Source: a virus. From it: a stretch of 40,229 bases of DNA. The stretch is from IMG/VR virus record IMGVR_UViG_3300028410_000001; one strand, given 5' to 3'. Of this stretch, positions 4,214 to 8,348 are shown piece after piece. Under the pieces are notes generated by a model, which saw only the letters and a list, made by a program, of their open reading frames with translations, made no database searches and was not told where the DNA came from. The position numbers were made by a program, and so were the translations under genes. Position 1 is the first letter of the stretch; every line of letters starts with the position of its first letter.

Positions 4214-4244
4214 ACGTCCTTCCTATTGCACCTGCGGCCGCGCC
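4214..4244 (+). promoter_or_regulatory. Late-block repeat motif, copy A: ACGTCCTTCCTATTGCACCTGCGGCCGCGCC
   Basis: Core TGCACCTGCGGCCGCGCC at 4227-4244, with 11 nt between it and ATG 4256. Confidence 0.6.
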
Positions 4245-4255
4245 ACCTTAGCTTC

Positions 4256-7249
4256 ATGGCGCTAACTACCGACAAGTATCAGCTAGAAGTTTCCTTCATT
4301 ACCGACCAGAGCCGCGCCCTGGCCAAAACCCTGATGGAGACGGAAAAGCTACCCAATGAGCTAAAAAAAGCACAGAAGGAAGGCAAGGGCGTCGCGGAGG
4401 TGATGGCCCGCATCGAGGCAGCAGGGAAGAAAGCGGAGGGGATTGACCTGACGAAGGTGTTGCCAGACCAACTTATCTCCAGGGCGCGGCAACTGCGCCG
4501 CATCCTCGACCAACTACCAGCAAGCGCACCCCAAGTGGCTGCGCTGGAAAAAGAATATAAGGCGATAAACGACCAGCTGGCGACGACGCGATCGCGCACG
4601 CGAGGGGTAGTGGCCGCAATGAATAAGGAAGATGGGGGCGGCTTGCTCGGCTTTTTCAAGCGTGGTCAGGTGGCCATCGTGGGCTTTGTCGCGGCCTTTA
4701 GCGGGGCGTTCGCGGTGCTCTCCCGGATTGCCACCACCTCCGCATTATTTCAGAAGTTCGAGGCGGTGCTGACCAACTCCCTGGGCAGCAAAAGCGCAGC
4801 CCAGTCTGCCCTCAACGACCTGCAGGATTTCGCAGCGAGGACCCCTTTTCAGGTGGAGGAACTAATAGGAAGCTACGTTAAGCTGGTCAATCGTGGCCTG
4901 AAACCCACGCAGCTAGAACTTACGAAGCTTGGCGACATCGCAGCCAGCCAGGGAAAAGGGTTCGACCAGCTGACTGAGGCTGTGCTCGACGCAACGACGG
5001 GCGAGTTTGAACGCCTGAAAGAATTCGGCATAAAAGGAAAGAAGGCGGGCGATGATATTGCCATCTCCTTTAAGGGCCAGACGGTGGAAATCAAGAATAC
5101 CCAGGAGGCTATCCTGCAAGCCATTGTTGGCTTTGGTGATTTGGAGGGCGTACAGGGGAGCACCGCCGCCATCAGCGCGACCCTCGGCGGGAAGATTAGC
5201 AACCTGACCGACCAGTTTACGCGCCTGCTGAAGAACCTGGGCGAGGGCTTCCTTGGCCGGATCATCGCGGGGGCAGTCGATAAGGTCAGCAAGCTGGTCG
5301 GCATGTTCGTCAATCTGACAGACAATACGAAGACGCTGAGCCAGAGCACGGCATTGCTGCAAGTAGCGTTCAATCAAGAAATAGCCACCCTGGAGCGGGG
5401 CAACATCAGCACAGAGAACCGGGCCAGACTGATCGCGCGAATCAACGATCGATACGGCGACCTGCTGCCGAACATGCTGCAAGAAACAGCGAGCCTGGGA
5501 GAGATCAAGCGAGCGCAGGAACTGGCCAATCGTGCTTTTGAAAAAAAGATAATTCTCCTGGCTGCGGAGGAAGCGTTCGTAGCAGTAAAGGAAAAGCAAA
5601 TTCAAGTCAGCCGCGAAGAGCTTCAGCTCGCCGACGAATTAACTGTCGCCTTTAAAAATGCCAACAGAGTTGCTGAACTTGCAGACATAAACCAGGTACG
5701 AAACCAGAAGTTTGCGGGCAACAACTCTTCAGAAGAAGCTGCTTCGCGCCAACTGAGCGGCGCAAGGGCAGCGGTCAAGGCAAACCAAAAACTTCAGAAA
5801 GAGCTACAAAAGGAATTTGACGAAACGACCAGAGCCGCTTTAAAGCTGGGCCTTGACCTCTTAACGCTTGGCGACCCAAGAGGCTCGGACCGAACAGTGA
5901 CGGACGGACCAGTCGGGCCTGGCAGTGGCGACCCGCTCAAAGAAGCCCTCAAAAGACTCAAAGAAAAATTCGACATCCAAAGCCAGCTCGCGGAACAGCA
6001 ACGCCTTCGTGAGGAGATCAGCGAAAGCGATTACCAGAAACGTGTACTGGAATTGCAGGCAGCGGAATACGTGCTGCAACTCCAGCTATTCAAGAAATTC
6101 AACGCCAACAAAACGCTGGCGGCAGAGGAAACGCGGACGGAATTGTTGCGCGTAGAGAAAGAGCTGAACCGCAGCGCGCCAGCGGCGGTACAGTCCATCG
6201 AAGGCGGTGAGCAAATTACCCGCGTTGATCGGCGCGGGATCAACGCGAGGCTGGACGCCCTGGCCAAGGTAGAAGAGGAGCAAGGGAAGATTACCCAGGA
6301 CGCGCGCAACGCTGACCTCATCAATGAAGACCAGTTTGCAGTTGCCAAGCTGGCCCTCAAACGATTGATTCTCAGTCAGGAAATTGAAATACTAGGGGAA
6401 GGGACCACCGCCGAGATTGCCCTGGCCAGGGAGAAAAAAGACGAGCTGGTGGCCATTGACCAGGAGCTTTTCGATAAGCGCAAAGAGCTATCCCTGCGTG
6501 AGCAGGAGCTACGCGCCGAGCTAGAGCAGCAGAAAACAGCGATTGCCACTGAGGGTCTGAGCACCCTGGAGGATCTGCTGGGCCGCGACGAAGCCGCGCG
6601 AAAGAAGAATGCGGCGGTCATCAAAGCTTTTCAGGCGGGGCAAGTCTTCGTTGCTGGCTTTGCGGAGCAGCAGCAGATAGCAGCAGCTACCGCCGCCCAG
6701 GTCGCTACCGCATCGCTGACCGTGGCCGGTCTGGCCCTGGTGCCAGGCATCATCGCGGCCGGAAAGATTCGCGCCATCTTCGCGGGCGTCCGCACCGCCG
6801 CCAACGTGGCGAAAATCGTATCGACGAAGTTCGAAAGGGGTGGAAAGGTGGGCACTTTTGGCGGCAAAAGCCATCGCGCTGGCGGCACAAAGCTGTATGG
6901 CGATGACGGAACCCTCGTCGAAGTAGAGAAAGGGGAGGACTTTTTCGTGATCAACAAGCGCAGCAGCGACATGCGCCGCCGCCTTAGTAATATGAACGTG
7001 GCAGGGGGCGGCGTTCCTTTCTTCAATAGGGGAGGGGATGTATTCAATGCACCCAACACTACGCCATCGTTGCCCGCCAGCCTGCTGGGCGGCGGGCAGG
7101 CTGACAACGCTGCCCTGCTGGAACGCATCGACCGCCTGACCGCCGTCACCGCCAACATGCAGACAAGCCTGCGCGCCACGGTCTCCCTCACAGAAATCAA
7201 CGATGGCAATGCAGACCTCGCTGAGCTGTTCGATATTTCGTCTGTTTAA
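4256..7249 (+). CDS. Tail tape measure protein
   Basis: 997 aa with long coiled-coil A/E/K/Q/L-rich segments and a hydrophobic segment VAIVGFVAAFSGAFAVL. Contains a tape-measure core-like stretch AARTPFQVEELIGSYVKLVNRGLKPT...GDIAASQGKGFDQLTEAVLDATTGEFERLKEFGIK. ATG 4256 is preferred over TTG 4226, which lies just upstream of and overlaps the motif core. Confidence 0.85.
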   Translation: MALTTDKYQLEVSFITDQSRALAKTLMETEKLPNELKKAQKEGKGVAEVMARIEAAGKKAEGIDLTKVLPDQLISRARQLRRILDQLPASAPQVAALEKEYKAINDQLATTRSRTRGVVAAMNKEDGGGLLGFFKRGQVAIVGFVAAFSGAFAVLSRIATTSALFQKFEAVLTNSLGSKSAAQSALNDLQDFAARTPFQVEELIGSYVKLVNRGLKPTQLELTKLGDIAASQGKGFDQLTEAVLDATTGEFERLKEFGIKGKKAGDDIAISFKGQTVEIKNTQEAILQAIVGFGDLEGVQGSTAAISATLGGKISNLTDQFTRLLKNLGEGFLGRIIAGAVDKVSKLVGMFVNLTDNTKTLSQSTALLQVAFNQEIATLERGNISTENRARLIARINDRYGDLLPNMLQETASLGEIKRAQELANRAFEKKIILLAAEEAFVAVKEKQIQVSREELQLADELTVAFKNANRVAELADINQVRNQKFAGNNSSEEAASRQLSGARAAVKANQKLQKELQKEFDETTRAALKLGLDLLTLGDPRGSDRTVTDGPVGPGSGDPLKEALKRLKEKFDIQSQLAEQQRLREEISESDYQKRVLELQAAEYVLQLQLFKKFNANKTLAAEETRTELLRVEKELNRSAPAAVQSIEGGEQITRVDRRGINARLDALAKVEEEQGKITQDARNADLINEDQFAVAKLALKRLILSQEIEILGEGTTAEIALAREKKDELVAIDQELFDKRKELSLREQELRAELEQQKTAIATEGLSTLEDLLGRDEAARKKNAAVIKAFQAGQVFVAGFAEQQQIAAATAAQVATASLTVAGLALVPGIIAAGKIRAIFAGVRTAANVAKIVSTKFERGGKVGTFGGKSHRAGGTKLYGDDGTLVEVEKGEDFFVINKRSSDMRRRLSNMNVAGGGVPFFNRGGDVFNAPNTTPSLPASLLGGGQADNAALLERIDRLTAVTANMQTSLRATVSLTEINDGNADLAELFDISSV

Positions 7250-7356
7250 TTGCGAAGTAGCAGAAAGGAGTAGCCTTATCGCCGAAAAGGTTCATGGATA
7301 GTCTACCTTTATTTCTCATCCTTGTGACGTTTTTAAACCGCCTATTTAATAATCTC

Positions 7357-7364
7357 TATCTTTG
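7357..7364 (+). promoter_or_regulatory. Bacteroidota-type -7 box TAtcTTTG
   Basis: TATCTTTG matches TAnnTTTG; a T-rich stretch lies 22 nt upstream at 7331-7334. Confidence 0.4.
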
Positions 7365-7369
7365 CCCTT

Positions 7370-7527
7370 GCCTGACAGCATTACTATCATACTCTCTTAT
7401 GCCCATTTCTCAACAGATCGACACGTTGGATGCCCCTCCCCGCAAGGATGGGGGCGAACTCGTAAGGGGGAGTATGCTTGTCAGGCTCATCCAACGTGTT
7501 CTTAATTTCCCTTTATTATGCCTGACA
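7370..7527 (+). promoter_or_regulatory. Structured 5-prime leader with interleaved inverted repeats, ahead of ORF 7518
   Basis: Arms are gcctgacagcat (7370-7381), acacgttggatg (7421-7432), atgcttgtcaggc (7464-7476) and catccaacgtgt (7478-7489). gcctgaca recurs at 7520-7527, overlapping the ATG. Confidence 0.5.
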
Positions 7528-7736
7528 ACAACCACACTCCATTACAGACGCTACTTCGTAGCCTCGCCCGCGTTGCCATCGACGAAGATTTCCAGACGGA
7601 AACCCGGCGCATTGCACTTTCCACGCTTCACCGATACCTCTCTGAGGTATTGTTAATTCCCAAGGAATTAAGTGATGACCCTTACCTTGACCGACTCGAT
7701 AAGATTATTGAGGAAAAGAAGCGGGCGGTAAGTTGA
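7518..7736 (+). CDS. Hypothetical small protein
   Basis: 72-aa ORF with a strong terminator just downstream. Confidence 0.45.
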   Translation: MPDNNHTPLQTLLRSLARVAIDEDFQTETRRIALSTLHRYLSEVLLIPKELSDDPYLDRLDKIIEEKKRAVS

Positions 7737-7754
7737 ATTACGATGCCCGAATTA

Positions 7755-7790
7755 AGCCCCGCCACGATCAACCGTGGCGGGGCTTTTCTT
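7755..7790 (+). terminator. Rho-independent terminator
   Basis: 12-bp perfect stem agccccgccacg / cgtggcggggct, 6-nt loop, then ttttctttg. Confidence 0.8.
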
Positions 7791-7799
7791 TGCCCATTA

Positions 7800-7830
7800 A
7801 CGTCCTTCCCTTGCACCTGCGGCCGCGCCC
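7800..7830 (+). promoter_or_regulatory. Late-block repeat motif, copy B: ACGTCCTTCCCTTGCACCTGCGGCCGCGCCC
   Basis: Core at 7812-7829, immediately after the terminator, with 60 nt between it and ATG 7890. Confidence 0.6.
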
Positions 7831-7889
7831 ATATTGTGGTTCATTACGATTCAATTACCTGAACCGTGTAACCCACAATACCCCCATTC

Positions 7890-8348
7890 ATGAATAAGGA
7901 AATTAATAAACTCGGCACCGACAACCTCAAGCGGGTGCTCGCCTTCCTGCTGATGATCAGCTTCGCGATCAAGGAACTCATTGAAAACTTCACCTTCGCC
8001 AAGGCGGTAGAGCTGGGATTCAAGCTCGCTCAAAACCAAGACCTGCTGACCGTCAGCACGGTCGCCCTGGCGGAACTGCGCGACCTTGATGTCTTCGAGA
8101 CAGAAGACGTAATCAAGTTCATCGGCATCAATTTCGACCTGGAAAACGACAGCCTGGAACAGCGCATTGAGGAAGCCCTCGACATCATCCCTGAAGCCTA
8201 CGCCCTTATCCTCGCTAACCTTGCCCTCTACACGAAAGTGAATCGCATTGTCACGAATTGGGGGAAGGTCACTGAGGCCCAGGTGAAAGACCTGCAAGGC
8301 CGCTTCGACGTCGCGACCCGCTTGGCCAGCGGGAAACGGGGCAATTAA
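7890..8348 (+). CDS. Hypothetical tail-module protein
   Basis: 152-aa ORF coupled to the next gene by a TAATG overlap. Confidence 0.55.
   Translation: MNKEINKLGTDNLKRVLAFLLMISFAIKELIENFTFAKAVELGFKLAQNQDLLTVSTVALAELRDLDVFETEDVIKFIGINFDLENDSLEQRIEEALDIIPEAYALILANLALYTKVNRIVTNWGKVTEAQVKDLQGRFDVATRLASGKRGN

Follow-up and report, generated by a model that had tools for sequence, protein, structure and literature searches.

We analysed a stretch of viral DNA of 40,229 nucleotides (IMG/VR virus record IMGVR_UViG_3300028410_000001), which at its full length is called the window here, and we are concerned with positions 7368-7530 on its plus strand, ahead of and across the start of a gene for a 72-amino-acid (72-aa) orphan protein (7518-7736, plus strand). 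An earlier reading made from the letters alone (the sequence-only reading) had placed this region between a tape-measure gene and a tail block. The first border is borne out, because the gene upstream (4226-7249) matches tape-measure families; the genes downstream, which are without a family match and are 96-100% conserved in relatives, may be taken as a tail block from their position only. Behind the 72-aa gene stands, as had been claimed, a strong intrinsic terminator (7754-7790, plus strand), which consists of a 13-bp stem (7754-7785) with 10 G-C pairs followed by a T-rich tail and is 100% conserved in the relatives. Ahead of the region lies a candidate -7 box of the Bacteroidota type, TATCTTTG (7357-7364, plus strand), which is invariant in all relatives. 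The box, the leader, the gene and the terminator (7357-7790) together have the appearance of a self-contained cassette, flanked by the tape-measure gene and the next block of genes. We propose, with a confidence somewhat above even, that 7368-7530 is a structured 5' leader, of which 150 bases are untranslated, and that it acts in cis as a translational switch of the 72-aa gene.

The region 7200-7900 was read directly, the arms were then re-extracted by script and the pairings were checked by a repeat finder. All the parts described here lie on the plus strand. Arm A (GCCTGACAGCAT / GCCUGACAGCAU, 7370-7381) is the 5'-proximal arm and the putative anti-sequestor, with A' as its partner. It is followed by arm B (ACACGTTGGATG / ACACGUUGGAUG, 7421-7432), by arm A' (ATGCTTGTCAGGC / AUGCUUGUCAGGC, 7474-7486), which pairs with A or with A'', by arm B' (CATCCAACGTGT / CAUCCAACGUGU, 7488-7499), which pairs with B, and by arm A'' (GCCTGACAA / GCCUGACAA, 7520-7528), which is made of the G of the AUG and codons 2-4, overlaps the ATG (7518-7520) and has 7478-7486 of A' as its partner. 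B and B' are perfect 12-nt complements, A and A' form 12 bp with one bulged U, and A' and A'' form 9 perfect bp; with the arm order A-B-A'-B'-A'' the pairings cross. Between B and A' lies hairpin H (7432-7455), with a G+C-rich stem formed by a C-run and a G-run and a GCAA loop of the GNRA type. Two helix extensions, with their 5' strands M (7383-7385) and X (7392-7401) within 7383-7401, appear in the minimum-free-energy (MFE) folds from 7368 in both haplotypes described below, and their 3' strands (7461-7473) make up, together with A', U7487 and B', one hub strand (7461-7499). Between B' and the start codon is a U-rich, unpaired spacer without a Shine-Dalgarno sequence (7500-7517), the likely landing zone of the ribosome.

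The sequence-only reading had the coordinates of the box, A, B and A'' right, and its claims that B and B' are perfect 12-nt complements and that A' can pair, in a mutually exclusive way, either with A or with a segment covering the start codon agree with the repeat finder, as does the latter claim with the joint change of A, A' and A'' in the relatives. Its arms A' and B' are real too, although they had been placed 10 nt off (7464-7476 instead of 7474-7486 and 7478-7489 instead of 7488-7499), and the pairing of C-runs and G-runs that it saw in the interval from B to A' is hairpin H. It is unlikely that the arms arose by chance. Perfect 12-nt inverted repeats not more than 150 nt apart number six in the window, B/B' among them, versus 0.26 in dinucleotide shuffles, and the motif GCCTGACA has three copies in the 40-kb window, every one of them in this leader of about 160 bp.

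The evidence that carries the proposal comes from the relatives. The locus is present in four IMG/VR contigs and one metagenome contig, so narrowly is the clade sampled, and two leader haplotypes can be compared: GA, in the window and L007, and AG, in L004-L006 and L016, the latter four being related metagenomic records that are about 94% identical. In the AG haplotype, GA changes to AG at 7374-75 in arm A and again at 7524-25 in A'' (in both, GCCU-GA-CA becomes GCCU-AG-CA), and UC changes to CU at 7481-82 in A', which compensates the changes in A and A'' alike. When pairs are counted across the alignment, all of them (100%) are standard in each helix, and A:A' and A':A'' have two doubly compensated pairs each. 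Two further changes keep a pair as a wobble in the plus-strand RNA only, namely A7494G in B', which pairs with U7426, and A7528G in A'', which pairs with U7478. Of the 12 differences in the leader, none disrupts a helix of the model, and all six remaining differences fall at positions that are unpaired in every proposed helix (P ~0.009 under random placement). The matched arms have almost the same calculated stability in the two haplotypes (-17.9 and -18.0 kcal/mol for A:A', -14.0 and -14.1 kcal/mol for A':A''), and arms mixed across the haplotypes are 6-7 kcal/mol weaker. The only change in hairpin H, which is one of the six remaining differences, is a 2-nt insertion in the loop, with the stem untouched. 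The positions of M and X (7383-7401) are invariant, so that covariation is silent for or against them. The coupled change in three partners suggests, from sequence comparison, that the pairings are used. It is also observed that just 3' of B' the AG haplotype has three unpaired substitutions (7500-7509, compared with L006), by which UCUUAAUUU becomes UUUUUAAUU and the U run after B:B' becomes longer.

The leader stands out locally by its conservation, and it is non-coding. From L007 the window differs at 1 of 161 nt in the leader, by 7% in the spacer upstream and by 20% in the open reading frame (ORF) of the 72-aa gene. A coding leader was considered and rejected, both as an overlapping 120-aa frame (7294-7656) and as an upstream ORF from the AUG at 7399, the frame not being conserved: since the 120-aa frame is cut to 57 aa in a relative by a 2-nt insertion, and since six of the seven substitutions in the shared part are non-synonymous, the leader is taken as non-coding. 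The frame from the AUG at 7399 has 85 codons in the window and 22 in the relative. The sequence around this upstream AUG (7399-7401), CTCTCTTATGCC, resembles the one around the main start, CTTTATTATGCC; in the fold that we call ON below, helix X buries the upstream AUG.

The gene that follows is, by contrast with its flanks, a hypervariable island, having a nucleotide divergence of 19-20%, a synonymous divergence (dS) of 0.29-0.42 and a ratio of non-synonymous to synonymous divergence (dN/dS) of 0.53-0.91, with flanks that are 97-100% identical. Its protein alleles are mosaic, with at least three N-terminal types (DN, SN and SR) combined with three different bodies. Codon 3, however, is in all alleles either Asp (GAC, window) or Ser (AGC, L006), which fits the constraint of pairing with A'. 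In a simple history, a new allele of the ORF would have come in by recombination and broken A':A'', and A' and then A would have changed in compensation; such a history needs both pairings to matter. In L007 (3001-3230) the ORF lacks 4 nt close to its 3' end and is thereby frameshifted, giving a 68-aa product with a different C-terminus.

The protein itself is acidic (isoelectric point (pI) 5.6) and hydrophilic (grand average of hydropathy (GRAVY) -0.51), with a maximum 19-residue hydropathy of 0.54 and no membrane segment, and its structure model has three amphipathic helices with a mean predicted local distance difference test (pLDDT) score of 77. It has no match in PHROG or Pfam and no helix-turn-helix (HTH), the predicted model finds no match in Foldseek at E < 1, and the atlas leads all score below 0.9. 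Close relatives only were found, in seven clusters among 5.8 billion proteins and in one representative cluster among 1.84 billion, from which it appears to be an orphan without relatives outside a narrow phage clade. We conjecture that its hypervariability is of the kind typical of accessory genes engaged with the host or with rival phages.

We now consider the predicted folding. When the 5' end is set at 7368-7370, both haplotypes have the same MFE fold, where A, M and X pair with 7461-7486 in an interrupted helix capped by hairpin H, with a predicted probability P(A:A') of 0.91-0.94 and with the AUG region largely open, and the nested A':A'' alternative is 1.2-1.9 kcal/mol less stable. Taking the first 4-12 nt off arm A raises P(A':A'') to 0.98-0.99 in either haplotype, with the first codons paired; on deeper 5' truncation it is 0.97-0.99 in the window but drops to 0.27 and 0.03 in G001. 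With pseudoknots allowed, the energies, which are rough estimates with a generic pseudoknot penalty and thus indicative only, come to -48.1 kcal/mol for the nested ON fold, -46.4 for A:A' with B:B', -46.2 for A':A'' nested and -47.3 for B:B' with A':A'', that is, four states within about 2 kcal/mol of one another. The combination of B:B' and A':A'' fits, by its sequence geometry and with the same rough energies, the layout of an H-type pseudoknot (junction of 1 nt, loop 1 of 45 nt, loop 3 of 20 nt), and on modelling the only form open to A:A' together with B:B' would be a quasi-continuous helix of 25 bp, into which arm A is wound by its free 5' end. In prefix folding the 5' helix is complete once 7487 has been transcribed, before B' and A'' exist. 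No 3' fold-back partner for arm A was found, the best 3' candidate being no better than -9.4 to -10.9 kcal/mol, and full-length folds keep A:A'. A small hairpin at 7408-7430 of the MFE fold of the window was dropped from the model, as it is broken by A7412C in a relative, and hairpin H showed no kinship to the repeated GNRA mini-hairpin in the early region.

Where the transcript begins bears directly on these folds. The TATCTTTG box would have transcription begin at about 7368-7370, on the first base of arm A. Since boxes of the form TAnnTTTG are not enriched, with six on the plus strand of the window versus about seven expected from our own base-composition estimate, we only infer a promoter at 7357-7364. 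On the minus strand there is also a candidate sigma-70-like promoter (7413-7386; TTGAGA, a 16-nt spacer and TATGAT, with 10 of 12 matches), leftward and antisense to arm A, which is probably not of the type used in Bacteroidota; no terminator was found for the leftward antisense candidate from it.

The host of the phage is probably in the Bacteroidota. The nearest relatives of its portal-like protein are from phages of Flavobacterium, Cellulophaga, Polaribacter and Microcystis, at about 25% identity. Direct reading finds no Shine-Dalgarno sequence at the ATG 7518 or at the neighbouring starts, which is consistent with such a host. Bacteroidota ribosomes do without Shine-Dalgarno pairing, and it is the structure of the mRNA that adjusts their initiation (PMC6847099), so that the structure at the start codon is expected to be a main control point.

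Based on these elements, our model of the switch would work as follows. The hub (7461-7499), with A' and B', would be one strand with three alternative partners. In the ON state, arm A, M and X would zip onto the hub in a helix of about 25 bp with hairpin H as its cap, and the U-rich landing zone, the AUG and A'' would stay single-stranded. In the OFF state, A' would pair with A'' and so close over the G of the AUG together with codons 2-4, and B:B' may join A':A'' as an H-type pseudoknot that stabilises the closed form, its loop 3 holding the landing zone. The initiation region would then be buried, which should be decisive where ribosomes ignore the Shine-Dalgarno sequence and depend on an unstructured start. 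Because the 5' helix is predicted to be completed first, the default product should be ON and the OFF state would need an event acting on arm A, and for the same reason the trigger would be the removal or occupation of arm A. It might come from processing or decay at the 5' end, from an RNA or protein acting in trans, or from a ribosome engaged at the upstream AUG (7399).

Several points weigh against this model. The fold is more stable than shuffled controls, but modestly so, the MFE z-score being only about -2 (-2.1 on the plus strand, where 3 of 200 shuffles fold as well, and -2.2 on the minus strand). The ON helix wins in every full-length fold, so that the OFF state would need a trigger, and longer 5' extensions give an erratic predicted balance that differs between the haplotypes; with the candidate -7 box not statistically enriched, the start at about 7368 is moreover one that we infer. 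The role of B:B' rests, in the modelling, on one wobble change together with rough pseudoknot energies. As only two leader haplotypes were found in all collections searched, the covariation is a single evolutionary event, and the shuffle control of pair counting, with three distinct rows, is of low power (the observed value is attained in 64 of 500 and in 47 of 500 shuffles). It is because the comparative evidence amounts to one event in two haplotypes that our confidence is moderate. As to what the sequence-only reading had expected of the element, the arms are indeed kept in relatives by compensated changes, in the two haplotypes, and the mutually exclusive pairings at the start codon support in part its translational control element; the pseudoknot is a predicted one, no known aptamer is evident, and the comparison with Rfam gave no family match.

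In another explanation, which we consider unlikely, the hub works in trans: like c4 of the phages P1 and P7 it would be a co-transcribed antisense RNA, and a processed A'B' fragment would bind A'' on other transcripts, among them transcripts from a superinfecting relative. The GA/AG difference would then be a heteroimmunity-like specificity determinant, and A and B would be internal partners, similar to a1 and b1, in the precursor. The locus resembles c4 in that one transcript carries first an antisense segment and then its target, which lies where a small ORF is initiated, in that further complementary copies stand upstream, and in that related phages have matched base changes in antisense and targets; the layout of c4 and its matched changes are reportedly those described by Citron and Schuster in 1990. 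The presence of upstream complements, antisense segment and downstream initiation-site target all in one transcript recalls c4 in the same way, and a concerted two-base change at all sites with equal stability looks like a specificity switch. The regulated gene is also small, at 72 aa, near the 73 aa that PMC11897509 gives for Icd of P1; the general role of c4, the antisense RNA of the immI operon, is described in PMC8198154. However, neither the Rfam C4 covariance model nor another family matches here even at E up to 10 (for C4, in 6900-8200), and no family reaches its gathering score anywhere in the window. c4 has two antisense segments with targets, while here only A' has a downstream target, the only strong partner of B' is the upstream B, and neither a B'' target downstream nor a target elsewhere in the genome was convincing. 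Moreover, the stretch from the hub to the ORF has no terminator or recognisable processing signal, folding predicts a hub that is fully paired in cis, no antirepressor gene follows, the unit ending in a terminator, and the locus sits in the tail module rather than in an immunity region. As a separate observation, the segment 14496-14525, GGATGGAAGCCTGAT, is a partial mimic of the complement of the A'-B' junction and the best non-self partner of the 26-mer (-30.6 kcal/mol, with a background of -24 to -29), probably by chance.

Both modes of action could be joined in a two-way device, a cis gate of the orphan gene that is also a trans hub recognising the start of the same gene on co-infecting or superinfecting relatives, to which we give a slim chance. 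If it were true, GA/AG would be an RNA-level compatibility code, re-matched at each swap of the hypervariable gene, and a heteroimmunity principle similar to that of c4 would exist in a Bacteroidota phage outside any immunity region.

It was also proposed in the sequence-only reading that the repeats could be a DNA operator array. In this explanation the GCCTGACA copies, and perhaps B/B', would be sites for a protein in DNA, either operators or recombinase sites, changed along with the protein specificity or the crossover core. Three copies within about 160 bp and none elsewhere in the genome would suit it, as would the change of the same dinucleotide in every copy, which operator-repressor pairs or recombination cores would show, and A7528G brings A'' closer to A at the DNA level. 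By contrast, A7494G in B' degrades the DNA repeat yet keeps the RNA pair, and the G·U wobbles hold in the plus strand only. The sites are short and non-palindromic, with irregular spacing and with an extra base in one of them, no copies are found in the immunity or integrase regions, and the relatives are collinear with the window, without inversion. The sole adjacent candidate protein is acidic, with no HTH and no family or fold match, and since the N-terminal site types DN, SN and SR recombine freely with three protein bodies, the protein body does not track the site type. The operator explanation is thus weakened, and we regard it as quite improbable.

Just as improbable to us is that B:B' is mainly a transcription attenuator, in which the stem with the U-rich run 7500-7509 would end a leader RNA of about 135 nt and the adjacent, sterically competing A:A' would be the antiterminator; this could coexist with the translational switch. 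It is true that a perfect 12-bp stem stands directly 5' of a U-rich tract, which is a U run in the AG haplotype, and that an extended B:B' invades three bases of A'. The stem, however, encloses a structured loop of 55 nt, has a base that is not G+C-rich and is missed by the terminator scan; the tract is interrupted in the window; and U-richness is equally expected at a ribosome landing site without a Shine-Dalgarno sequence.

Least probable in our estimate is that the repeats are non-functional relics of local duplication or inversion whose concerted change came about by template switching or gene conversion: template-switch mutagenesis can indeed copy multi-base changes between inverted repeats in one step and only one event is observed, but two separate conversions, from A to A' and from A' to A'', would be needed over repeats of 9-12 nt, and no account would be given of the absence of the other differences from the helices, of the leader being conserved more than any other local segment, or of A'' lying on the start codon.

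We return to the translational switch in cis and compare it with known systems. The closest likeness in principle is to the hok mRNA of hok/sok, whose tac element corresponds to arm A, whose initiation region corresponds to A'' and whose ucb corresponds to A', the 5' element and the start competing there for one segment, and where open versus closed conformers decide translation, as is proposed here. The hok pathway was recognised from coupled covariations, in which one position has two partners, as stated in PMC9841398 with its references 12 and 30. A three-partner exchange of the hok type with coupled covariation is found in A/A'/A'', with both helices fully paired, in a single event. The differences are that hok has a 3' fold-back (fbi) partner, of which arm A has none here, that the product here is hydrophilic, acidic and predicted to have three helices instead of being a hydrophobic membrane toxin, that there is no conserved overlapping frame of the mok type and, as antisense, only a candidate leftward promoter, that the sequestered element is the AUG with the first codons and not the Shine-Dalgarno sequence, and that here an extra crossing helix, B:B', is present and Rfam gives no match.

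In the lambda cIII mRNA and in the leader of the maturation gene of MS2, competing long-range pairings open and close the initiation site, and the order of co-transcriptional folding matters. Their sequences and hosts differ from those of our leader, and they sequester the Shine-Dalgarno sequence in Proteobacteria and are not known to have a three-partner hub with a crossing 12-bp helix. With riboswitch platforms and translational attenuators the leader shares the logic of sequestor and anti-sequestor around the start, but unlike riboswitches it has no conserved aptamer or ligand that is evident and no match in Rfam, and has long near-perfect helices instead of a compact binding pocket. An order of helices like that of the hepatitis delta virus (HDV) ribozyme (P1-P2-P3-P1'-P4-P2', compared by eye) was rejected, since with 1 nt between A' and B' there is no room for P4 or J4/2, and Rfam gave no match. 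We conclude that the RNA switch is the best-supported explanation, with moderate confidence, and that the leader is new and unclassified and is built on a known regulatory principle.

As to its surroundings, the whole unit 7357-7790 is carried by all known relatives, so that none of them marks it as an insertion of the kind seen in phage morons. Compared with a moron, which is an autonomous unit of promoter, gene and terminator in a late operon, the cassette has a strong terminator of its own and a tape-measure gene upstream, and its candidate promoter box is present but without statistical support. Searches of IMG/VR with the ORF, the 152-aa neighbour, the C-terminus of the tape-measure protein and two leader 20-mers gave the same four contigs each time, and a metagenome scan using the ORF alignment gave one contig, of the AG haplotype. 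A DNA search of the GenBank phage collection and of E. coli genomes gave no match, and a leader 18-mer gave two chance matches only among species-representative genomes (Peregrinibacteria and Thorarchaeota). In addition, a G+C-rich motif, AACGTCCTTCC..TTGCACCTGCGGCCGCGCC, occurs in two near-identical copies, at 7800-7832 directly after the terminator and at 4214-4244 ahead of the tape-measure gene.

Finally, we note what the switch would mean. The finding is limited by its very narrow phylogenetic distribution, and knowledge of cis-regulatory RNAs is sparse for Bacteroidota and their phages. If the model is true, this system, compact at about 160 nt, would illustrate clearly how nature uses control by structure at the start codon, as a three-partner switch that is marked by coupled covariation. 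It would show, moreover, how a regulatory RNA is re-tuned when the gene that it controls is exchanged, with part of the switch being codons 2-4 of the hypervariable orphan itself.

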